A stretch of DNA of 64,000 nucleotides from Bacteroidota bacterium (lineage in GTDB: Bacteria; Bacteroidota; Bacteroidia; Chitinophagales; LD1): assembly GCA_947476645.1 (NCBI GenBank), contig CANJRM010000006.1, positions 3,146-67,145 on the forward strand, in the 5' to 3' direction. Below are positions 13,417-49,587 of this stretch, piece by piece (positions within the stretch are counted from its first letter, which is position 1; every line of letters begins with the position of its first letter). Under the pieces are notes generated by a model, which saw nothing but the letters and a program-made list of their open reading frames with translations, was not told the origin of the DNA and did no database searches. A program made the translations under genes and the position numbers.

Positions 13417-15321
13417 TTATTGAACAACTACCTTGGAGTTCAATCGGCCTTTTGCGGTTTCTAAAACCACAAAGTAAACACCTTTGTTCAGTGCTGTTAA
13501 GTCTAACTCTTCGGAATAATCGCCTGAGAAGTTTTGAATAGGCTTGTCAACCACCACCTGCCCAATCATATCTTCAATATGCAGGCGAATGTTCTGTGCT
13601 TCTTCTGCCGTAAATTTCAAGGTGAATTTTCCGTTGTTAGGGTTTGGATAAACACTTAAGTTGTAGATAGAGTTGAAAGAAATTTCTTCAAAGCCGGAAA
13701 CGTTAACGGTATCTGGACTTGCTAAAGTGCGGCAAGAAGGATAAGCCACGCTATAAACTTCGGCAGTGTAAACGCCATTACCTAAGTAAGCAAGAAATTT
13801 TCCATGCTGACCTACCACTAAGTTTCCATTGTAGAACCAATCAACCGCCAATCCCGAAGGGAAAGGAGTTACGAAAGCAGATGTGCCGTTGAAAATAACA
13901 CTGATACTTGCCGGTGGCGATTGAATTCTCACCACTGTTTTCCATTCAGATTCTGCCGAACAGCCCGTTGTCTGATTGGTAACTTTAACTTTGTATTTCC
14001 CTGCTAAATTGGTATAGAAAGCAGAATCATTTACACCATTGATATAAATGGTATCGCGATACCATTCGAAATTGCAACCCGGGTAACCATCACCAATAGA
14101 AAGGCGTGTGCTATCGGTTGAGCAAATAGTATCGGCTCCTGCTAAAATTACAGGAGTAACAGGTGTTGGGTTTACGATAACATGTAAGGTGTCGCTTAGC
14201 ACAATTCCCGGTATAGTATCGAAACGAACATTGCCGTTGGCATTGTTTGTATTACCTGCTAAAACCTGAAGACCTAAACCAACAGTGCAAGTCATAGTTT
14301 CTAAATCATCATCTGCCAAACCAAAGAGAGCAATAGTGGTAGATGAGTTTCCGCAGAGGTCATCATCCCAAAGTTCCATGCTTAAAGAAGTTGTGCCGAA
14401 AGGAACAGGATAGTTTAGGTTATTCCATGAAGGGGTTGTAGTTGAAGGAGCCGAATTGCTGCAATCGTTTGTAGTGCCTAATGCCCCAACAACCATATAT
14501 GGCTCGGGGTCTTGAATAGCCGATGCTTCGTTCCAGTCAGAATACCAGCCGTGGTTTATACCATAGATACTGATTGACTTAACAATGTATTGATAAAAGA
14601 CAGTGTTCAGAATAATATCAAAGGTATCGGGAACACTGGTTGCATTAGTGAAATGATAAACGCCAGGGTCTTTGCCTTCGTAAGGTGTGCCGTCAATGTT
14701 CCAATACCAACGGGTGAGGTTTGGCAATTGAGCGGTACGGGTAGCGTGTAAGTCAACGGTAATACTATCACAAGCACTTGAACCATTGTTGCCATAAGTA
14801 AAGGTGGTTACACCTAACACTGTATCGGGCAATACATAAAGGGTATCGTAATACTGCTGTGCTACATTGTTTTGGTTTACATCGCCAATGGGAGTTCCAT
14901 GTGCAGTTACATCGGCATAAAGATGCACAGCTATTGGATAAACACCAGCCACTAAAGCAGTACCACAAAAATGCGCACAGCCAATAGAATCTCCGTTTTC
15001 TACATCGAAATAACTATTGTTTGAAATTACATAACTGATGCCACCCGGCAAACCGCTTATTCCCGCTACTGTAATATGCCGAAGGTTTACCGAATTACAC
15101 TGACACAAAGCCAACACACTTGGGTCGGTCAATAGCTTAGGCATAAAAAAGTTTAGGAGTTTATCGTAAGGATGGTTGGCATAAGCGGTATCTAAACGAT
15201 TGCACAAACCACCATTTGGAGGGCAAGTGATAAATGCCGGTGTACACATAGAACACTGCGCATTAATTTGCTGAATACTGAATGCAGAAACTACGAGTAA
15301 AAAGAGAATAAATTTTTTCAT
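13417..15321 (-). CDS. Large secreted T9SS-CTD protein, a distant member of the same family
   Basis: The start is taken at MKKFILFLLVVSAFS. It has a GISGLPGGISY motif, an Ig-like module (CSTDSTRLS...YxWY...G.Y.V.V) and CTD VYPNPNNGKFTL...GVYFVVLET. Confidence 0.8.
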   Translation of the reverse strand: MKKFILFLLVVSAFSIQQINAQCSMCTPAFITCPPNGGLCNRLDTAYANHPYDKLLNFFMPKLLTDPSVLALCQCNSVNLRHITVAGISGLPGGISYVISNNSYFDVENGDSIGCAHFCGTALVAGVYPIAVHLYADVTAHGTPIGDVNQNNVAQQYYDTLYVLPDTVLGVTTFTYGNNGSSACDSITVDLHATRTAQLPNLTRWYWNIDGTPYEGKDPGVYHFTNATSVPDTFDIILNTVFYQYIVKSISIYGINHGWYSDWNEASAIQDPEPYMVVGALGTTNDCSNSAPSTTTPSWNNLNYPVPFGTTSLSMELWDDDLCGNSSTTIALFGLADDDLETMTCTVGLGLQVLAGNTNNANGNVRFDTIPGIVLSDTLHVIVNPTPVTPVILAGADTICSTDSTRLSIGDGYPGCNFEWYRDTIYINGVNDSAFYTNLAGKYKVKVTNQTTGCSAESEWKTVVRIQSPPASISVIFNGTSAFVTPFPSGLAVDWFYNGNLVVGQHGKFLAYLGNGVYTAEVYSVAYPSCRTLASPDTVNVSGFEEISFNSIYNLSVYPNPNNGKFTLKFTAEEAQNIRLHIEDMIGQVVVDKPIQNFSGDYSEELDLTALNKGVYFVVLETAKGRLNSKVVVQ

Positions 15322-15410
15322 TTTTATTTTTTGAGCCGCCAAATATAAAGATGTAATTTAAATCGGTTTGGTGGCATGGTACGGTTGTAATAAGAAAGGG
15401 CATAAGCTAA

Positions 15411-15471
15411 TGTCATCCTGAGCTTGTCGAAGGATTGTGGAGTAAAAGGCTTCGACAAGCTCAGCCTGACA
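15411..15471. repeat. Dispersed palindromic intergenic element, copy 2
   Basis: TGTCATCCTGAGCTTGTCGAAGG...GCTTCGACAAGCTCAGCCTGACA, in the same family as 9726..9787. Confidence 0.8.
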
Positions 15472-15505: not shown

Positions 15506-15945
15506 GACAGATTTCGACAGTTTTGAGTCAATTTACACGAGTTTGGAAACCTTCCACAACTTCGCTGGAGGGCTGAGACATTCGTCTCTGCCTTCTATAG
15601 CTTCCATAGAACGTTAGGACATTCGTCTTTGCCTTCTATGGCTTCCATAGAGGGTTCAGATATTCGTCCTTGCCTTCTATAACTTCCATAGAGCGTTAGG
15701 ACATTCGTCTCTGCCTTCTATAGCTTCTATAGAACGTTAGGACATTTGTCTCTGCGTTTCATAACTTCCATAGAGCGTTAGGACATTCGTCTTTGCCTTC
15801 TATGGTTTCCATAGAACGTTCAGACATTCGTCTTTAGCTTCTATGGCTTCCATAGAGGGTTGAGATATTCGTCTTTTCCTTCCATGGCTTCCATAGAACC
15901 TTCGGAAACTCGTCCGACAGCTTTGTGTTTTCATATAAGTGTTAA
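15506..15945. repeat. Non-coding 41-bp tandem array. Eight well-conserved units at 15577..15904 are flanked by degenerate units, and each unit has an internal 7-8 bp inverted repeat.
   Basis: Unit consensus GACATTCGTCTCTGCCTTCTATRGCTTCCATAGARCGTTAG, with internal dyad TTCTATGG-CTT-CCATAGAA. 41 is not a multiple of 3 and neither strand has a long ORF. It ends ~90 bp upstream of the LRR gene. Confidence 0.9.
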
Positions 15946-16035
15946 AGAATTAACAGCCCTGCCTACCGGCAGGCAGGCGCCACGCAGACCCCTACCCCGC
16001 CAAATTTATTTTACATTTACTACAAATCTCCCACC

Positions 16036-18525
16036 GTGAAGAAATCTCTAGTGCGCACTCTTGCATTGTCTTGTGTCTTCTGTCTTGTGTCTCTTGTCTC
16101 AAAAGCGCAGTGGGTTACCATACCCGACACGGCATTTGTATCCTACCTGCAAGCTACTTTCCCTGCCTGCATGAATGGAAATTTAATGGATACTACTTGT
16201 AGTGGAATTGTAAATGCTCATGGGGTTTATTGTAGTCATAGAACACATCTGAGAGACCTTACAGGAATAGAATACTTTGACAACTTAGATACACTGAATT
16301 GTTCTTATGATTCGCTGACATCTATAGGTTTACTGTCTAATACTATAAGATGGATAAATTGCTCAAACAATAAACTGAGCAGTTTATTGATGCTGCCAAA
16401 TTCTTTAACGGAACTCTTGTGTGAGTTCAACAAATTAACGACTCTACCTATTTTACCGAATGGTTTGATTTGTTTGTATTGCAGTGTTAATCAGTTAGTC
16501 AACTTACCTGTATTGCCAAATTCTTTGTATAGGCTTTATACGGACCAAAATCAACTTTCAAGTTTGCCAGTATTGCCAGATTCCTTGTTTGAAATTTATT
16601 GTGATGAAAATCACCTCACAGTTTTACCCGCTTTACCTAACACGTTGCGTGGTTTAAATTGTACTAATAATCAACTAACTGTGTTACCTCCTTTACCAAG
16701 TTTATGGTCTTTACAGTGTGGCAATAATCAACTTTCTGTTTTGCCAGTCCTACCTGATTCTATTTCTATTTTTTCTTGTAATAATAATATTCTCACAAGT
16801 TTACCCTCGCTGCCAGTCTTTTTATACGGTAGATTCAATTGCCGAATGAACCAACTTTCGATTTTACCTGCTTTACCCAATCGGGTTACGGAACTTTTTT
16901 GCGACCATAACCAACTAACGAGTTTACCCGAACTTCCAGATTCGTTATATTATCTCTATTGCAACAGCAATCCAAGCTTAATGTGCATGCCAGAATTAAA
17001 AAAGGTAATGGATTTTAGGTTCGATAGCACTGGAATTATATGCCTTCCCAATTATCCTCGCTCAAATACATACAGCAGTCCCTCGCTTACTTCAGTTCCC
17101 CTCTGTGACCCATTCAACACCAACGGCTGCTCCGTATATTGGAACATCAACGGCAAAGTTTACAACGATACCAGCGGCAACTGCCTAAAAGATATAGGCG
17201 AAACCAACGTGCAGAATATGAAGGTAAATCTGTATGAAAACGGTGTGCTTACTCAGCAAAACTACAGCGGTGGTTATGGTATTTATTCTTTTTATACCGA
17301 CACAGGCACCTTTGAAACTACCGTAGATACCACAGGAACTCCCTTTGATATTCTTTGCCCCGTAAGTCGTTTTGATACTTCGGTTATTACCGCGCTTGAT
17401 TCTTTTGATTACAATATGGATTTTGCCATGCAGTGCAAGCCTGGTTTTGATGTGGGGGTTTGGTCGGTGGTTCCTAATACTTCTATTCGCCCCGGAGCTT
17501 TGGTTCACCTGGCGGTGAGTGCAGGTGACTGGGCAAAGTTTTGGGGGCAAACCTGCCATACCGAAAATTTAAGCGGGTTGTTTCAGATGACTATCGGTGG
17601 TCCTACTACTTATATTTCGCCCGAGCCGGGTGCTCTTACGCCTGTGGCAGCGGGCAATGTGCTTAGCTATACTATAGCCGACTGGGCTGCCATTGACCCG
17701 CTTACTGCGTTCAATGTTATTATACAGGTAGACACTTCTGCGTTTGCGGGTCAGTATTTTTGTGTGGCGCTTTCGGTTAACCCTTTTATTGGTGATAACA
17801 ATTTTGCTAATAATGTGCTGCAACTTTGCGAGCCCGTAGTTAACTCTTATGACCCTAATGTGAAAGTGGTTTACCCCGCGGGCGATTGGGATACTTTGTT
17901 GCAGCCGTGGTTTACCTATACTGTTCGTTTTCAAAACACGGGCAACGCTACCGCCCAGCATATTTATGTAACCGATACGCTGGATACTGATTTAGATGCG
18001 TGTTCTTTTCAATTGCTGGGTTACAGTCATGTGCCCATGATTGAAATAAAAGAAAATGCTGTGCGATTTAATTTTCCCAATATCAATTTGCCCGATAGTA
18101 ATGCGAATGAGTTGGCGAGTCACGGTTATGTGCAGTACCGAGTGAAAATGAAACCGGGTCTTGCCACGGGAACGCACATCAACAATACCGCGTTTATTTA
18201 TTTTGATTTTAATGCGCCCGTGGTTACGAATACTACGAACAATACGATTACGAATGCAACGGGCATCAAAGAGTTCGGAATGCAGAATTTAGAATTCAGA
18301 ATGAATCCAAATCCGACCTCCACAGCGGTAAATATTTCTGTTGATGATGAAATGATTGGAAGTTCACTCACTGTTTATGATGTAACCGGAAGAAAGATGG
18401 CGGGTGTTGAACTGAAAACTTTAAACTACAAACTGGAAACTTCTGCCTTTGCGACTGGTGTTTACTTTGTTACTATCGAAAGTGAGAAAGGACGAATTAC
18501 GAAGAAGTTGGTGGTGGAGCGTTAG
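16036..18525 (+). CDS. Leucine-rich repeat (short bacterial IpaH/YopM-type LPxLP LRR) protein with a central beta-rich domain and T9SS type A CTD
   Basis: GTG start followed by signal peptide MKKSLVRTLALSCVFCLVSLVSKAQ. About 12 repeats of 20-22 aa (L..LP.LP..L..L.C..N.L). CTD has MNPNPTSTAVNI...GVYFVTIESEKG. Confidence 0.85.
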   Translation: MKKSLVRTLALSCVFCLVSLVSKAQWVTIPDTAFVSYLQATFPACMNGNLMDTTCSGIVNAHGVYCSHRTHLRDLTGIEYFDNLDTLNCSYDSLTSIGLLSNTIRWINCSNNKLSSLLMLPNSLTELLCEFNKLTTLPILPNGLICLYCSVNQLVNLPVLPNSLYRLYTDQNQLSSLPVLPDSLFEIYCDENHLTVLPALPNTLRGLNCTNNQLTVLPPLPSLWSLQCGNNQLSVLPVLPDSISIFSCNNNILTSLPSLPVFLYGRFNCRMNQLSILPALPNRVTELFCDHNQLTSLPELPDSLYYLYCNSNPSLMCMPELKKVMDFRFDSTGIICLPNYPRSNTYSSPSLTSVPLCDPFNTNGCSVYWNINGKVYNDTSGNCLKDIGETNVQNMKVNLYENGVLTQQNYSGGYGIYSFYTDTGTFETTVDTTGTPFDILCPVSRFDTSVITALDSFDYNMDFAMQCKPGFDVGVWSVVPNTSIRPGALVHLAVSAGDWAKFWGQTCHTENLSGLFQMTIGGPTTYISPEPGALTPVAAGNVLSYTIADWAAIDPLTAFNVIIQVDTSAFAGQYFCVALSVNPFIGDNNFANNVLQLCEPVVNSYDPNVKVVYPAGDWDTLLQPWFTYTVRFQNTGNATAQHIYVTDTLDTDLDACSFQLLGYSHVPMIEIKENAVRFNFPNINLPDSNANELASHGYVQYRVKMKPGLATGTHINNTAFIYFDFNAPVVTNTTNNTITNATGIKEFGMQNLEFRMNPNPTSTAVNISVDDEMIGSSLTVYDVTGRKMAGVELKTLNYKLETSAFATGVYFVTIESEKGRITKKLVVER

Positions 18526-18722: not shown

Positions 18723-19094
18723 ATGGCAGATTTAAAAGCATTAGCAGAAACATTGGTAAACCTTACGGTTAAAGATGTTCAGGAATTAGCAACAATTTTG
18801 AAAGCAGATTACGGTATTGAGCCGGCAGCAGCAGCAGTAGCTGTAGCAGCAGGACCAGCAGCAGCAGCAGCTGTAGCTGAAAAAACTGAGTTTGATGTAA
18901 TCTTGAAAAGCGCAGGCGCGCAAAAACTAAACGTGGTTAAGGTGGTTAAAGACCTTACCGGTCTTGGCTTGAAAGAAGCTAAGGATTTAGTTGACGGAGC
19001 TCCTAAGGCTGTGAAAGAAAAAACAGACAAAGCAACTGCTGAAGACTTGAAAAAGAAATTAGAAGATGTAGGCGCTGAAGTAGAGATTAAGTAA
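18723..19094 (+). CDS. rplL: 50S ribosomal protein L7/L12
   Basis: Full-length 123 aa with an Ala-rich hinge and C-terminal [27 protein letters not shown]. Confidence 0.95.
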
Positions 19095-26847: not shown

Positions 26848-27150
26848 TTACCCTCGCAAAGCCTCGGGTCGGGCTTTCACTGCAATCTTTTTTGAAACAA
26901 AAAAGGATTTCCGTTCTATCCCTAACCCGAATACAAACAGCCGGTTCTGTCTTTTGTATTTGCATTTGTCTCCCGCTGGCGGGAGTGGCACGCGGCTCTG
27001 CGCGTGACGAGGGTGGAATGCATTTGCTCGAACAAATACTAGAAACAGAAAATTCCTTACGGAGTTAAATCCAAATTTGTATTTGCTCCAGCGGAGCATT
27101 CTATTTGTAGAAAATGAAAAACACAAATCACTCACGCTCCGTAGGAGCCG
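26848..27150. repeat. Cluster of short GC-rich hairpin motifs in an intergenic region
   Basis: Examples are CTCCCGCTGGCGGGAG (26970..26985), CACGCGGCTCTGCGCGTG (26989..27006), CCTCGGGTCGGGCTTTCACTGCAATC and CGCTCCGTAGGAGC. The 95-aa track ORF here has non-protein-like composition. Confidence 0.55.
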
Positions 27151-29108: not shown

Positions 29109-29455
29109 ATTTGCTATTGTTAGTGTTTTAGTATCGCCTTTGCGGTTCGTCACCAACAGCTATTCTCATGCAAATCTAAACTTCCTTTTCCTTTCCAAAA
29201 AATTTTCTTTTTGCCGTTGTTGGTGTTTAGTCCCGCAGTCTCTGCGGACGTCACCAACAACTATTTTCGTCTAGGCACTCTCTCCTTCTTACTTCCCTAC
29301 GCAATGCGAGTTCCACCCCCTCCAAAAAAAAATTTCTCAATCTCAAAAACTCTTTTTTCTTTTGCATCAACATTCAGAAAACAACATTTCATAACTCACT
29401 CTTCTGGTTCTAAACAAAAACCAAGATTGAATTAGAAGGGCTAAAAATCTTCAAC

Positions 29456-30206: not shown

Positions 30207-30240
30207 AATCAAAAATGCCCCTTCATGGGGCATTTTGATT
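30207..30240 (+). terminator. Rho-independent terminator
   Basis: AATCAAAAATGCCCC-TTCA-TGGGGCATTTTGATT. Confidence 0.75.
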
Positions 30241-30261
30241 AAAAAACCTTTACAACAACCG

Positions 30262-30533
30262 TATTTTGAATGCATGAAGCGTACTGCGCAGTACAACAGC
30301 AATACTTTAAACTCCTTCAAGAGTATTTCAAATTACAACAGCAGTACTACTGAATACTTCAAGTCTATTTCAAAATACAACAGTCATACAACAGAATACA
30401 TGGAGCATATTGGTAAATCCACCAAGGCTATTTTCAAATACAACCCCCGTAATTTAAAATGCAACAGGCATATTTTCATTTCCCGCAACGCTATAACAAC
30501 CTGCCAAATAAATACTGCAACTCTTCTTTGGGT
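30262..30533. repeat. Degenerate 21-bp phased tandem array (~13 units, partly with 42-bp super-period)
   Basis: Units anchored by TAY start at 30282, 30303, 30324 and so on to 30513 with no indels. Recurrent unit types are TATTTCAAAATACAACAG and TACnnnnnAnnCTTCAAG. Confidence 0.8.
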
Positions 30534-30545
30534 TAAATCGTTTTT

Positions 30546-30595
30546 GTATTCACTTCTGCATTCTGCAATCGTTAATCTTCAATCGCTAATCAAAA
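30546..30595 (+). repeat. Dispersed ~50-bp intergenic repeat, copy A
   Basis: GTATTCACTTCTGCATTCTGCAATCGTTAATCTTCAATCGCTAATCAAAA. Its reverse complement recurs at 47749..47810. Confidence 0.85.
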
Positions 30596-30679
30596 GATAT
30601 TTTAGATTTTCTTTCCTCCTGAAGCCTCCGCTTCGGCATCCTGCGCGCGCCCTCGCCCCTTTCTTTTTATTATTGCACC

Positions 30680-45580: not shown

Positions 45581-47710
45581 ATGTCACAAATTGCCACTAT
45601 CGAAAAAAGAAATAACGGAGTAGCCATTGTTTGGCTCGACCAGCAGAACGAAAAGATTAATAAAGTATCGCTGGAGTTTGTGGAAGGCATTGATAAAATA
45701 TTTCAGGAACTGGAAAACGATAACTCGGTTAAAGCTGCGGTTATTATCAGCAAAAAGAAAGACTGGATTGCCGGTGCCGATATTGAAATGTTTGGCAAGG
45801 TGAAACAGAAGGGCGATTTTATTCAGTTTACCCGCAACGGCCATGTGTCGTTAAACAAATTAGAGAAAGGAAAGAAACCGGTGGTGGCTGCAATCAACGG
45901 TGCTTGCCTTGGTGCAGGAACAGAAATTGCCTTGGCTTGTCATGGTCGTATTGTTAGCGATGATAAGAGCACACACTTTGCTTTGCCTGAAGTTATGCTC
46001 GGCTTGTTGCCTGGTGGTGGGGGTACTCAACGTCTTCCGCGTTTGATAGGAATACAGAAAGCACTCGACATGATGCTGACCGGTAAAAAGATTTACGGTA
46101 AAAAAGCAAAGAGCATTGGTCTTGCCGATAAAGTAACGAACAAAGAAAGTTTGTTGAACGCAGCTATTGATTTCGCTTTGCAACTCGCCAACAAACCTTT
46201 AGTACGCGAAGACAAAAGAACTTTCGTTGAAAAATTTTTAGAGAGCAATCCATTAACGCGCAGAATAATTTACAGCAAGGCAAAGGAGATGGTGATGAAA
46301 CAAACGCAGGGAAATTATCCTGCGCCTCTTCGCATTTTGGAATGTGTGCAGATAGGAATGGAAGAAGGAATGGAGCGCGGGCTCGATGCCGAAGCGGTGA
46401 AGTTTGAAGAATTGATTTTGACAAACGAGAGCCGTCAGTTGATTCGCATTTTCTTCAACATGACCGAGAAGAAAAAGAACCCGTATGCAACGGACTTGAT
46501 TAAATCTACCGATAACATTGCCATGATTGGCGCGGGCTTTATGGGTGCAGGCATTGCACAAGTGAGTGCGGTGGACGGAATAAATGTTTTGCTCAAAGAC
46601 ATTAAAGAAGAAACGCTTCAACAAGCCAAGCAAACTATATGGAGCGATTTAGCCAAGAAGATTAAACGCAAAACCATGACTCAGCCCGAGGCAGAGCAAA
46701 TAGTTAACCGCGTTCAATCGAAATTGGATTACAATGGCTTTGATAAAGTTGACATTATTGTTGAAGCGGTGTTTGAAGAAATAAAACTGAAGCAACGCAT
46801 AGTAGCTGATTGCGAAGCAGCTTCTTTACCTAACACTATTTTTGCAAGCAACACTTCTGCTCTTCCAATTTCACATGTGGCAGAAAAAGCAGCGCGACCT
46901 GAGAACATTATTGGTATGCACTACTTTTCTCCTGTTCCCAAAATGCCTTTGCTCGAAATTATAAAGACACCAAAAACTGCCGACTGGGTTACGGCTACTT
47001 GTTTTGAACTCGGCATTCGTCAGGGCAAGACTTGCATTGTAGTGAATGACGGCCCGGGCTTTTATACCACACGTATTCTGGCGCCTTACATGAACGAATG
47101 TTTCCTCTTGATAGAAGAAGGTTGCGAAGCAGGCTTTATTGACAAAGCGATGAAGCAATGGGGTTTCCCTGTGGGACCTGTGACTTTGCAGGATGAAGTA
47201 GGCATTGATGTAGGCGCGCATATTATGAAAGGCGAGCTTGCCGAAATGGCGAAACTGCGCGAAGGTGCACGCACCAGCGATGCTATTTTGAAAATGTTTA
47301 ACGATGGTTACCACGGCAAGAAGAACAAGAAGGGCATGTATAAATATGATGAGAAAGGAAAGAAGCAGGGCATTAACGAAGACATCTACAAATACTTCGG
47401 TAATCCTAAACGCAAAGAGTTTACGATAGAGACTATACAGAACCGCATGGGCATGATGTTCCTGAACGAGTGCCTGCACTGTCTGGAAGAAAATATTTTA
47501 GAAAGCCCTACCGATGGCGATGTTGGTGCAGTGTTTGGGTTAGGCTTTCCTCCGTTTACCGGTGGACCTTTCCGTTATCTGGACCACCAGGGTGCTGATA
47601 AAATTGTTGCGCTGATGGAAGACTTATCTTCTAAATACGGTGCGCGCTTTAAGCCCGCTAATATTTTGAAGGAGTATGCGAAGGAGGGGAGGAGGTTTCA
47701 TGCTAATTAA
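45581..47710 (+). CDS. Fused enoyl-CoA hydratase / 3-hydroxyacyl-CoA dehydrogenase (FadB/FadJ type)
   Basis: Crotonase N-terminal part (AAINGACLGAGTEIALAC), a Rossmann motif IGAGFMGAGIA, and 3HCDH C-terminal domains. 709 aa. Confidence 0.9.
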   Translation: MSQIATIEKRNNGVAIVWLDQQNEKINKVSLEFVEGIDKIFQELENDNSVKAAVIISKKKDWIAGADIEMFGKVKQKGDFIQFTRNGHVSLNKLEKGKKPVVAAINGACLGAGTEIALACHGRIVSDDKSTHFALPEVMLGLLPGGGGTQRLPRLIGIQKALDMMLTGKKIYGKKAKSIGLADKVTNKESLLNAAIDFALQLANKPLVREDKRTFVEKFLESNPLTRRIIYSKAKEMVMKQTQGNYPAPLRILECVQIGMEEGMERGLDAEAVKFEELILTNESRQLIRIFFNMTEKKKNPYATDLIKSTDNIAMIGAGFMGAGIAQVSAVDGINVLLKDIKEETLQQAKQTIWSDLAKKIKRKTMTQPEAEQIVNRVQSKLDYNGFDKVDIIVEAVFEEIKLKQRIVADCEAASLPNTIFASNTSALPISHVAEKAARPENIIGMHYFSPVPKMPLLEIIKTPKTADWVTATCFELGIRQGKTCIVVNDGPGFYTTRILAPYMNECFLLIEEGCEAGFIDKAMKQWGFPVGPVTLQDEVGIDVGAHIMKGELAEMAKLREGARTSDAILKMFNDGYHGKKNKKGMYKYDEKGKKQGINEDIYKYFGNPKRKEFTIETIQNRMGMMFLNECLHCLEENILESPTDGDVGAVFGLGFPPFTGGPFRYLDHQGADKIVALMEDLSSKYGARFKPANILKEYAKEGRRFHAN

Positions 47711-47748
47711 AAACATCTGCAAGCACTAATCGTTAATCTCCCATTGTA

Positions 47749-47810
47749 TTTTGATTAGCGATTGAAGATTAATCCCGATAGGTATCGGGACAGAATGCAG
47801 AAGTGAATAC
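47749..47810 (-). repeat. Dispersed ~50-bp repeat, copy B (inverted), interrupted by an 18-bp palindrome
   Basis: TTTTGATTAGCGATTGAAGATTAA[TCCCGATAGGTATCGGGA]CAGAATGCAGAAGTGAATAC. The bracketed palindrome replaces the CGATTG found in copy A. Confidence 0.85.
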
Positions 47811-47893
47811 AGACATACCTAAAGAATAAATAGTTGTTCGTGACGTATTGTAAAGCCGATACTAAACACCAATAACGGCAAAACCAATAAGTA

Positions 47894-48082
47894 ATGGACG
47901 ATATACTAATCTCTCTCTTCCTTTTTGCAATAGGAGTTTTCTTAATAATGATAATGGGGAAACGCTCATCAAAACACGCATTAAATTTTATTGAAACAAT
48001 TCAGTCATACCTCTGGGGAAGTTTTTTTATACTGGGTAGCGTTTTTGTTCTTTTAAGATTCCTTTATCATCTCATACACTAA
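47894..48082 (+). CDS. Possible small two-TM membrane protein
   Basis: 62-aa ORF with two hydrophobic helices. There is no other support. Confidence 0.35.
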   Translation: MDDILISLFLFAIGVFLIMIMGKRSSKHALNFIETIQSYLWGSFFILGSVFVLLRFLYHLIH

Positions 48083-48255
48083 CAATAAATAATCTTCGTC
48101 CCCGCAGACCCTCCACCTCAGAACCCTGCGCAAGAACAACTTCTTCTACCTGTTCCATAGAACCTCAAAAAAATATAAAAGGCAACTTTTTTGCTCAGTT
48201 CGCGTCTTAAAATTATACCTGTTTTTTAAAGGTTTTCGTTACTAAAGAAAACGTT

Positions 48256-48468
48256 ATGAATAAGTATAAACATCTGTCTGATGAGGCGCGGAAACTCCGT
48301 AGCAAGATAAAGATGTGCCTATCTAAAAGAAGCTACGAAACCAAAGAAGAAGCTTACCAAAAGGGTCAGGAGATTTATAAGTGTAAGCATTGCGGCAAAT
48401 GGCACCGCAGCGGGCAATTATCACGGTTTATGTATCATTTAAGAAAGGGACATTACAGATTTGGATAG
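48256..48468 (+). CDS. Possible small basic Cys/His (zinc-ribbon-like) protein
   Basis: 70-aa ORF containing YKCKHCGKWH plus an upstream Cys. The A-rich upstream region is compatible with a Bacteroidota start context. Confidence 0.4.
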   Translation: MNKYKHLSDEARKLRSKIKMCLSKRSYETKEEAYQKGQEIYKCKHCGKWHRSGQLSRFMYHLRKGHYRFG

Positions 48469-48535
48469 TCAAGCCTGGCAAGAACGAAAATTGCTTCCCG
48501 CCCTTTATCTTTTTGTTCTAATTGATTAAAAGCGC

Positions 48536-49186
48536 TCTTTAATGCATTGGAGCCCATTTCTAATCAATTAAGTTTGCTCTCTAATGCATTAAGTTGTCTT
48601 CCTAATGCATTAGAGATCCTTTCTAATACATTAAGCGGTCGCACTAAAGCATTAAAAACCCTCTCCAATGCATTAAAATCTCTTTCTAATTCATTAAAGA
48701 GCCTTTCTAATGAATTAAAATGCCTTTCTAATGCATTAGAAACCCTTTCTAATCAACCTGAAACATGCTCAGGTGCACCCGAGCATGTTTCAGGTGAACC
48801 CAAGAGCCTTTCAGGATGACCCGAGCCTTACTCATGTCCACCTGAGCGCGTTTCCGATGTATCAGCGCGTTCTCTAAATGCTATAAAAAAGGGCTTGCGT
48901 GCACTCAAATGTGGTTTGCGTGCACGCGAGACGTTCTTGCATGCATGCAAAGGGTTCATGCATGTACGCAAGACCTTCATGTGAGTACGCCAGACAGTTC
49001 TGCATGAACGCAAAACGTTCAAGCGTGTACGCAAGCCAGTTATGCATGCACACAAGCCCTGCTTGAATGAACGCAGTGGAGCTTCGCGTGTACGCAAGCC
49101 CTTCTTGTATGAATGCAAAAGCCTTTCACATAGATATAATTAGGATTTGCATGCATGCAAATGTCTTTTATATGGATGAAAAGGCA
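48536..49186. repeat. Strictly phased 21-bp tandem array (31 units, no indels) of dyad-symmetric cores that drift from TTCTAATGCATTAGAA-type to CTTGCATGCATGCAAG / TGCGTGCACGCA-type
   Basis: The unit register was verified at 48536, 48557 and so on to 49166. The dyad centre sits at the same unit position throughout. Perfect 18-bp palindromes occur at 48725..48742 and 49145..49162, and a 38-bp palindrome at 48757..48794. Confidence 0.9.
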
Positions 49187-49314
49187 ATAAGCAAAGACGT
49201 AAAGGAATATTTCCTCTCCGCCTCAGCAGACATCTGTACTTTCTTTTCTTTCTCTTTCCAAAAACTTTTAGTTTTACCTTCGACAACTTCATTCTTTAAC
49301 CTAAACTAAAACCT

Positions 49315-49587
49315 ATGCCTAAGTATATCATTGAAAGAAACATTCCGGGTGCAAGTAAATTGACACCCGAGCAACTAAAAGGTATTTCACAAACCTCGTG
49401 CACCGTGCTGGGTGGCATGGGTCCGCAAATACAATGGAAACACAGTTATGTGGCGGGCGATAAAATTTATTGCGTTTACATAGCTCCTAACGAAGAGGCT
49501 ATTCGAGAGCATGCTGCCAAAGGCGGCTTTCCTGCAAATCTGGTTACCGAGGTTTCGCATATTATTGACCCTACTACGGCTGAGTAA
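49315..49587 (+). CDS. DUF4242-family protein
   Basis: MPKYIIERNIPGA...GPQIQWKHSYVAGDKIYCVYIAPNEEAIREHAAKGGFPA...IDP matches the family pattern. Confidence 0.8.
   Translation: MPKYIIERNIPGASKLTPEQLKGISQTSCTVLGGMGPQIQWKHSYVAGDKIYCVYIAPNEEAIREHAAKGGFPANLVTEVSHIIDPTTAE

Follow-up and report, generated by a model that had tools for sequence, protein, structure and literature searches.

The window analysed here is a stretch of 64,000 nucleotides (nt) from a Bacteroidota bacterium (GenBank assembly GCA_947476645.1, contig CANJRM010000006.1, positions 3,146 to 67,145), and all coordinates below count from its first letter. On an otherwise normally dense chromosome, the window contains a gap of 1.6 kilobases (kb) between a fadB-like gene and a gene of the DUF4242 (SCO4226-like) family. 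Within this gap lies an array of short palindromic repeats with a period of 21 base pairs (bp). An earlier note on this DNA, made from the sequence alone, had described 31 units starting at 48536. When the region was printed at 21 bases per line, the exact, indel-free register was upheld, and the count came to 32, the extra unit lying at the left end (48515, GTTCTAATTGATTAAAAGCGC). The array, at 48515-49186, is therefore made of 32 head-to-tail 21-bp units in one register with zero indels. Its units fall into three blocks, which we call A, B and C:

45581-47710: fadB-like gene, left flank of the 1.6-kb gap
48515..49186, no strand: whole array, 32 x 21 bp without indels, the dyad axis falling between unit columns 9 and 10
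48515..48766, no strand: block A, 12 units, consensus TTTCTAATGCATTAAAAACCC, dyad TCTAATGCATTAGA
48756..48795, no strand: 40-bp near-perfect palindrome across the A/B junction, arms 95% complementary, centred on the axis of unit 48767
48767..48871, no strand: block B, 5 units, consensus TTTCAGGTGCACCCGAG, dyad CTCAGGTG/CACCTGAG
48872..48892, no strand: degenerate unit between blocks B and C, without a dyad, register retained
48893..49186, no strand: block C, 14 units, consensus TCTTGCATGCACGCAAAACCT, dyad CTTGCRTGCAYGCAAG
49315-49587: DUF4242/SCO4226-like gene, right flank of the 1.6-kb gap

The period was evident in the autocorrelation of the sequence, which reached 0.57, 0.59, 0.56 and 0.53 at lags of 21, 42, 63 and 84 and stayed at about 0.25 at other lags. 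A search with the two-unit pattern TAATGCATTA-N11-TAATGCATTA, allowing up to three mismatches, returned 10 matches, compared with 0.01 expected from shuffled sequence. The block A dyad is perfect in unit 48725, and the last unit of this block (48746) is a hybrid between A and B. In short form, the palindromes of blocks B and C read CTCAGGTGCACCTGAG and CTTGCATGCATGCAAG, respectively; the fifth unit of block B (48851) is degenerate, while the full block C dyad is perfect in unit 49145. Block C also has a 42-bp super-period, detected both by Tandem Repeats Finder and by comparison of its units. Identity between units one to three positions apart was 0.57-0.60 and fell to about 0.40 for units separated by 20 positions or more. 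Such decay of similarity with distance, together with the super-period of block C, is typical of tandem arrays that evolve by local duplication and exchange. Deviations from the block consensus total 180, the units being about 27% diverged from it.

We next consider the symmetry of the units. Measured across eight arm positions, complementarity came to 0.63 with the centre set between columns 9 and 10. Other centres gave 0.16-0.35, excepting a second axis on column 20 that is implied by periodicity and symmetry together; overall, the dyad stands at 63-67% versus about 25% elsewhere. The symmetry was strong where columns 5-8 pair with 11-14 (72-88%), moderate for columns 3-4 with 15-16, and near background for the outer columns (1-2 with 17-18) and the spacer. 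The proposal that each unit carries a dyad at a fixed position was therefore borne out as far as the axis is concerned, but individual units are often poor palindromes, and many pair only three to five of nine positions.

Covariation of the arms between and within blocks

The earlier note had observed that the arms change symmetrically on both sides and had concluded that selection acts on the dyad or hairpin. Across all units, each of the pairs 4/15, 5/14, 6/13 and 7/12 is found in two or three Watson-Crick versions. With G-U counted, standard pairing reached 70%, compared with 59% in shuffles (0 of 500 attained the observed value) and 28-47% when the partner position was slid. The covariation score over all units was 0.39 versus 0.23, above both the shuffled and the slid controls. 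When only the letters of the 3' arm were shuffled within blocks, the signal disappeared, with 159 paired cells observed against 155.5 expected (P = 0.24). Inside the blocks, 77 deviations are one-sided, and 3 of the 16 double deviations are complementary versus 5.3 expected.

The covariation of the arms lies wholly between the three blocks, and there is no continuing compensation inside them. Since shuffling within blocks removes the signal, the covariation records two or three symmetric multi-base founder changes, from A to B and on to C, which were later amplified. Each block consensus is a good palindrome, and within blocks the palindromes erode by one-sided substitution. Symmetric change of the arms is thus real between blocks, whereas within blocks change is mostly one-sided and compensation is at the level of chance, so that no ongoing selection on pairing is visible. 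Mispaired mirror positions comprise 24 G:T and 34 A:C. The instance of T:G pairing in an imperfect unit that had been quoted is correct, but these counts give no strand signal. We would add a caution for arrays of this type: two or three founder events, once amplified, can produce arm covariation in a tandem palindrome array, which need not mean selection on structure.

Coding capacity, RNA structure and distribution among relatives

Because 21 bp equal seven codons, the array might be the remnant of a gene for a heptad-repeat (coiled-coil) protein, with units translated as LSNALKx. The period is indeed a multiple of three without frame-breaking indels, the block A frame reads LSNALKx with leucine at the a and d positions, and phage coding repeats with NAL heptads fit the block A DNA pattern. 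However, each of the six frames has at least four stops inside the array, the longest open stretch being 309 nt, and no frame is open across it. Consensus deviations are distributed over the three codon classes as 64/59/57, with no third-position excess on either strand. The open reading frame (ORF) of 90 amino acids (aa) in block A had no homolog among 5.8 billion clustered proteins. The 96-aa ORF of block C, the largest and on the opposite strand, gave one marginal match (E = 3e-4) and no credible homolog among 1.84 billion representatives. Searches of the array ORFs against Pfam, NCBIfam and PHROGs produced merely sub-threshold coiled-coil noise. In matching contigs no gene was called across the array body, and a 52-aa ORF clips the last unit and a half. 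Similar peptides (NAL..., ETCSGAPEHVSG) are read from both strands only because the DNA is palindromic, and the block C frames yield peptides of implausible composition, with much Cys, Met and His. As a control, 21-bp repeats from viral contigs that fit the same DNA pattern lie mostly inside open frames of 0.5-6 kb. The ORF at 48547..48819, which the earlier note had named as the possible conserved heptad protein that would speak against its proposal, has neither homologs nor codon periodicity. We conclude that the array is non-coding. With its frames interrupted, no codon periodicity and no credible homologs, a heptad-repeat protein gene is effectively refuted.

The functional form could alternatively be a transcript or single-stranded DNA (ssDNA) with tandem hairpins, as a structured RNA, as a stabiliser or terminator array, or as ssDNA hairpins that are recognised as such. 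The fold of the whole array was much stronger than that of shuffles (z = -10.5), the arms covary from block to block, and the array sits between two same-strand genes, where read-through transcription is possible. Yet a strong whole-array fold is what any run of self-complementary repeats gives. Folded singly as RNA, the units averaged -1.7 kcal/mol for the + strand and -2.2 kcal/mol for the - strand; on the + strand, 13 of the 32 stayed at 0.0 kcal/mol, with no stable hairpin. The earlier suggestion of a transcript forming tandem hairpins is weakened by these energies and by the lack of wobble asymmetry, as the G:T and A:C counts favour neither strand. Rfam searches of the array gave no family at the gathering threshold nor at E up to 10, and a tRNA search of the window found none. 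Within-block compensation is lacking as well, and we consider a hairpin-forming transcript or ssDNA very unlikely.

Several particular classes were also rejected. A structured RNA family has against it the missing covariance-model match, the absence of strand-specific G:U tolerance and the absence of compensated pairs within blocks. A promoter or terminator array was rejected because promoter-like matches were no commoner than in shuffles, terminator-like sites were not found, and the Bacteroidota-type motif TAnnTTTG had one match in the lineage-specific segment described below. CRISPR was ruled out on geometry, the period being 21 bp and the variable part 5-7 bp. The base composition of the segment is unremarkable.

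The array forms the right end of this segment, which also contains small dispersed repeats, a 62-aa ORF and a 70-aa gene. The features of the segment and its right border are:

47754..49227, no strand: lineage-specific segment, about 1.5 kb, boundaries approximate
47749..47811, + strand: small repeated module, at the left edge of the segment, with a reverse complement (79% identity) at 30545-30595
47828..47883, + strand: palindromic element resembling repetitive extragenic palindromes (REP-like), further copies at 29110-29164 and 29209-29266
48256..48468, + strand: gene for a 70-aa basic zinc-binding protein, 46 bp upstream of the array
49228..49314, + strand: native upstream region of the DUF4242 (SCO4226-like) gene, right edge of the segment

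Conservation of the region upstream of the DUF4242 gene extends over about 85 bp in the related locus L266 and over about 47 bp in L270-L273, which places the lineage-specific segment at about 47754-49227. Comparison with relatives revealed very different contents at this position. In L002, a relative at 84-93% nucleotide identity, only 88 bp separate the two genes, where the window has 1.6 kb. Between fadB and DUF4242, the spacing in L266 is 1260 bp and includes two unrelated ORFs, L270 has a 167-aa ORF there, and in L267-L269 a different gene (DEAD-box helicase) lies upstream of DUF4242. Neither the array nor the 70-aa gene was present at this interval in these four related lineages (L002, L266, L267-L270). 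Absence among close relatives, which the earlier note had listed as an argument against its own proposal, is thus what we observed. The interval upstream of DUF4242 is a variable intergenic hot spot.

An inverted-repeat search of 47650-49350 returned intra-array pairs alone, with no terminal inverted repeats flanking the array or the segment. No target-site duplication was found around either, and searches of phage and plasmid collections gave no DNA match. Elsewhere in the 64 kb we found no credible solitary copy of the three dyads, the single near-match (54778) being inside an ORF, and the idea of a regulon is unsupported. Pfam calls for the neighbouring genes were ECH/3HCDH, SCO4226-like, TMEM175, GH125, Glucosamine_iso and OmpA; nearby small ORFs had no family match. 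The three intergenic copies of the REP-like element have the form GTTGTTGGTGAC - hairpin - CACCAACAAC.

The 70-aa protein next to the array belongs to a rare family (10 clusters in 5.8 billion proteins) with an N-terminal MNKYK and invariant residues that include C21, C43, C46 and H50. Most of its relatives are found in IMG/VR contigs or among small genes arranged in phage-like strings. Family members (loci L007-L012, L023-L026 and L274-L284) occur in phage contigs and, in Bacteroidota-like contigs, as single genes flanked by host genes; one of them is called 'transposase-like' by one source. A search for arrays near about 17 homolog loci in phage-like contigs found none. Among the closer homolog loci, L024 alone, with a 70%-identical homolog, adjoins a 21/42-bp array, and that array has no dyad. 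The L024 array (263-569; CAATCAAAACATCACGGTCAG / CAATCAAAACCCCGCGAACGA), free of indels at 86% matches, is 155 bp upstream of the homolog. A structure model of the 70-aa protein (pLDDT 82) had no significant match in PDB or BFVD, to a DNA-binding fold or otherwise. No family match turned up for the protein either, and its tblastn search in phages returned no match. With phage-like homolog loci lacking the array and the L024 array lacking a dyad, a functional tie of the protein to the array is unsupported.

Origin of the array

The array is built in blocks, shows no compensation within them, does not encode a protein and is absent from relatives. With moderate confidence, we favour the explanation that it is a lineage-specific non-coding minisatellite, derived from amplified palindromic founder units and now decaying. 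A palindromic unit could fold back on the lagging-strand or nascent strand and so give rise to replication slippage and unequal exchange, and well-paired units would be preferentially amplified into blocks. The few symmetric multi-base switches between blocks could result from rare hairpin-templated (quasi-palindrome) template switching, or from conversion between units in inverted register. Through either event, one arm would be rewritten from the other all at once, yielding new symmetric founders. Excerpts of three publications (PMC7202029, PMC8604942, PMC13100816) report that template switching homogenises inverted-repeat arms and causes multinucleotide changes. Whole-unit exchange would hold the period constant, and after amplification the units would decay one-sidedly. 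The hybrid unit 48746 and the 40-bp palindrome at the A/B junction argue for tandem amplification, and the repeat-rich character of the window (a 41-bp dyad array, a degenerate 42-bp array and REP-like repeats, see below) is consistent with a minisatellite. No sequence-specific cellular function is required, and we saw no sign of a conserved one. Any effect would be confined to the surroundings, acting on transcription or on DNA topology in the stretch that separates the phage-type 70-aa gene from the DUF4242 gene. Mobile or phage-derived DNA fills the hot spot, and the array probably originated inside it or was brought in with it.

Several observations weigh against a decaying minisatellite. 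Despite 180 consensus deviations there are 0 indels in 32 units, an order beyond what simple neutral decay would lead one to expect. Deviations are 2.4 times fewer in the core (columns 3-16) than in the spacer (5.9 versus 14.0 per column, chi-square p = 5e-6), the deviation profile is mirror-symmetric along the unit, and the purine/pyrimidine pattern YTYnnRTGnAYnnRAR is common to blocks A, B and C. A protected symmetric core and such a common pattern would also be expected of a phased binding site. Contigs from four samples, 99.85-100% identical to the window, share the copy number and sequence of the array exactly; it is not visibly hypervariable, the divergence among those four samples being very shallow. 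Slippage and template switching are themselves steps that we infer and did not observe. As the 41-bp array of the window and the L024 array are also indel-free at 81-86% matches, the indel-free register may be a property of the whole class. This order could come from whole-unit exchange or conversion in direct and inverted register, or from selection on phasing.

The main rival reading is a phased binding array, in which a dimeric protein would bind the degenerate dyad YTYnnRTG/CAYnnRAR at sites 21 bp (two helical turns) apart, all on one face of the DNA, to form a nucleoprotein filament. Such a filament could serve as a site of the centromere or iteron type, as a titration sink or as an insulator. 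Phased binding explains the register, strictly indel-free over 32 units, and the symmetric core better than the minisatellite does. Conservation is mirror-symmetric, with a core of 14-16 bp and a free spacer of 5-7 bp, and 6-bp half-sites around a 2-bp centre suit dimer operators. As hairpins, single units are too weak to function, so that recognition would have to be of the duplex, and the 41- and 42-bp periods of the other window arrays correspond to about four helical turns. However, the blocks differ at three to four positions per half-site, unlike the sequence-conserved sopC, parS or iterons, and decay within blocks is one-sided without excess compensation. The array is missing from relatives, no par or rep gene is among the neighbours with Pfam calls, and credible solitary dyads are lacking in the 64 kb. 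A possible partner is the small basic zinc protein encoded 46 bp upstream, whose 70%-identical homolog in L024 is likewise beside a 21/42-bp array. Its model has no significant match to any DNA-binding fold, though, and neither the roughly 17 array-free phage-like loci nor the dyad-free array of L024 fits this role. The 23-nt period of BrickBuilt, a comparable minisatellite discussed below, is also not a whole number of helical turns. We regard a phased binding array as possible rather than probable. A wider version, that the array is one case of a widespread undescribed Bacteroidota class of helically phased dyad arrays (21, 41-42 bp) kept as one-faced scaffolds for a dimeric DNA-binding protein, seems doubtful to us. 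Specificity would there be re-set by whole-arm symmetric replacement, which would account for register, mirror core and free spacer, and the small zinc protein family could be the candidate partner at some loci. Alternatively, the minisatellite may reside in a mobile, non-autonomous element similar to MITEs (miniature transposable elements with inverted repeats) of the BrickBuilt/BOX type, which inserted between fadB and DUF4242 and grew in repeat number afterwards. The segment is an insertion or deletion relative to L002, its left part has two small dispersed repeats, one of which also abuts the 42-bp array at about 30.3-30.5 kb, and BrickBuilt and PgRS have such an architecture in Porphyromonas gingivalis. 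A Prevotella metagenome-assembled genome (MAG) moreover carries elements in which inverted flanks enclose four palindromic 21-bp units, dispersed in at least 12 copies. On the other hand, terminal inverted repeats and a target-site duplication were not found around array or segment, the segment holds two ORFs and is therefore not miniature, and no similar DNA was found in phage and plasmid collections. We consider insertion as a MITE-like element unlikely.

Known repeat systems, similar arrays and other features of the window

The earlier note knew of no described element class that matches the array, but intergenic minisatellites with dyad symmetry, BrickBuilt and PgRS, are already described from Bacteroidota (PMC4596501). 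BrickBuilt of P. gingivalis has 23-nt units with conserved and variable positions and dyad symmetry; it occurs in 19 copies, is always intergenic, has no Rfam match and shows some promoter activity (PMC4596501). MITEPgRS/MITE464 of the same species have 41-nt units (Klein et al. 2015, PMC4596501). The authors reported no matches of BrickBuilt outside P. gingivalis and P. gulae (PMC4596501).

These elements resemble the array in several respects. They come from the same phylum and consist of intergenic, head-to-tail repeats of about 20-40 nt, without spacers and in up to about 23 copies. The array units likewise have conserved and variable positions and a dyad symmetry that allows long stem-loops, and the lack of an Rfam match and the restriction to one species are also shared. 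The 23-/41-nt pair of P. gingivalis is echoed by the 21-bp and 41-bp arrays of the window. The array differs in its period (21 instead of 23), the likeness being one of architecture without established sequence similarity. It has no leader, tail or IS5-like terminal inverted repeats in the region searched (47650-49350), and its three internally symmetric subtypes share one register beside a phage-type gene. The array therefore resembles a known, little-studied kind of repeat, the new aspects being the 21-bp period, the absence of detected terminal repeats and the three symmetric subtypes in one register.

Similar arrays were sought by pattern scans of genomes and metagenomes; those given here are among the matches listed, which included none from this species. 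The scan pattern is itself quasi-palindromic, and the palindromy of the matched arrays is partly by design. Analogous non-coding 21-bp arrays with a palindromic core were found in Aquaticitalea, Prevotellaceae, Dysgonamonadaceae and Daejeonella. Aquaticitalea sp. MAG_04 has two non-coding arrays, of 17 units (L034, 7584-7940) and 22 units (L089, 110-571), with a common core GTGTGGACACATTG, each array having its own spacers; their positions are directly upstream of pyrG and of a gene for ornithine aminotransferase. Units of the Prevotellaceae array drift between subtypes along the array. The MITE-like copies of Prevotella sp. SARD13_bin.030, at least 12 in number, are dispersed (L056, L059, L068, L085, L086, L093, L098, L121, L123, L142). 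Four 21-bp units make up their core, each consisting of a 13-bp palindrome TTCACGnCGTGAA and 8 further nt, and inverted flanks (GGAAAGTCCGGAAAAGCGAA ... TTCGCTTTTCCGGACTTTCC) enclose it. Pattern scans of viral sequence yielded hardly anything but coding heptad repeats.

BrickBuilt-like dyad minisatellites are thus not confined to Porphyromonas; 21-bp versions occur in several Bacteroidota, often just upstream of housekeeping genes. Should phasing and the symmetric core prove to be selected, such arrays would represent a nucleoprotein site of a new type on the chromosome. Without such selection, the arrays would still be of use for marking intergenic hot spots that are mobile or hyper-recombinogenic, and they would give rise to spurious ORF calls.

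Other known systems are less close. REP elements, their mosaic assemblies (bacterial interspersed mosaic elements, BIMEs) and BOX elements (boxA-boxB(n)-boxC) are also clustered, short, imperfect intergenic palindromes with modular tandem amplification, for which roles in mRNA stability, termination and protein binding have been proposed (see also PMC3333891 and PMC3733652). REPs have a GTAG/CGTC tag, alternating orientation and hundreds of dispersed copies. The array units have no GTAG or CGTC tag, are self-symmetric and are strictly head-to-tail at a fixed 21 bp, and we rejected this class.

Whole-turn tandem spacing, with a dyad or binding site in each repeat and a one-faced nucleoprotein complex, is a feature of sopC, of the lambda origin and of plasmid iterons. 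F sopC consists of 12 repeats of 43 bp with an inverted repeat in each, the lambda ori has its own iterons, and plasmid iterons measure 19-22 bp. In those systems the bound sequence is the same from repeat to repeat and par or rep genes are adjacent, whereas the array has three dyads at a chromosomal intergenic site, no par/rep nearby and no counterpart in relatives. Tandem phased dyad repeats, as in a partition centromere, are present, but the binding sequence is not constant (columns 4-7 and 12-15 differ). Genes of the parA/parB or parM/parR type are not among the neighbours, and a partition centromere was rejected. An iteron origin was rejected as well: repeats are present, while no rep-like gene was found nearby and there was no similarity to plasmid or phage records. 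Mycobacterial interspersed repetitive units (MIRU) and other variable-number tandem repeats (VNTR) are, like the array, tandem repeats without coding function that change through slippage and unequal exchange, and their units are less alike the further apart they lie. Typical VNTR units are, however, near-identical and vary in copy number between strains, in contrast to the roughly 27% divergence and the identical copy number in four samples seen here.

The window contains further repeats. A second phased dyad array lies at 15577-15914, with eight units of 41 bp, 81% matches and no indels. Its units carry the inverted repeat TTCTATRG-ctt-CCATAGAA (71-75% complementary). This array is located between divergent genes at 13417-15342 (-) and 16036-18525 (+) and is flanked by REP-like hairpins at 15413-15470 and about 15955-15980. 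A degenerate 42-bp tandem array (TACAACAGCAnTACT...TATTTCAAAA) at 30250-30597 follows a terminator-like hairpin at about 30216-30240. It abuts a module of about 50 bp (30545-30595), the reverse complement of the one at 47749-47811 on the left edge of the segment. Finally, a Flavo-1 RNA motif (Rfam RF01705) was detected at 26863-26936 on the - strand with 47.5 bits, above the gathering score, which indicates a host from the Bacteroidota, and Tandem Repeats Finder identified a run of about 16 copies of the GCA trinucleotide at 18825-18871.

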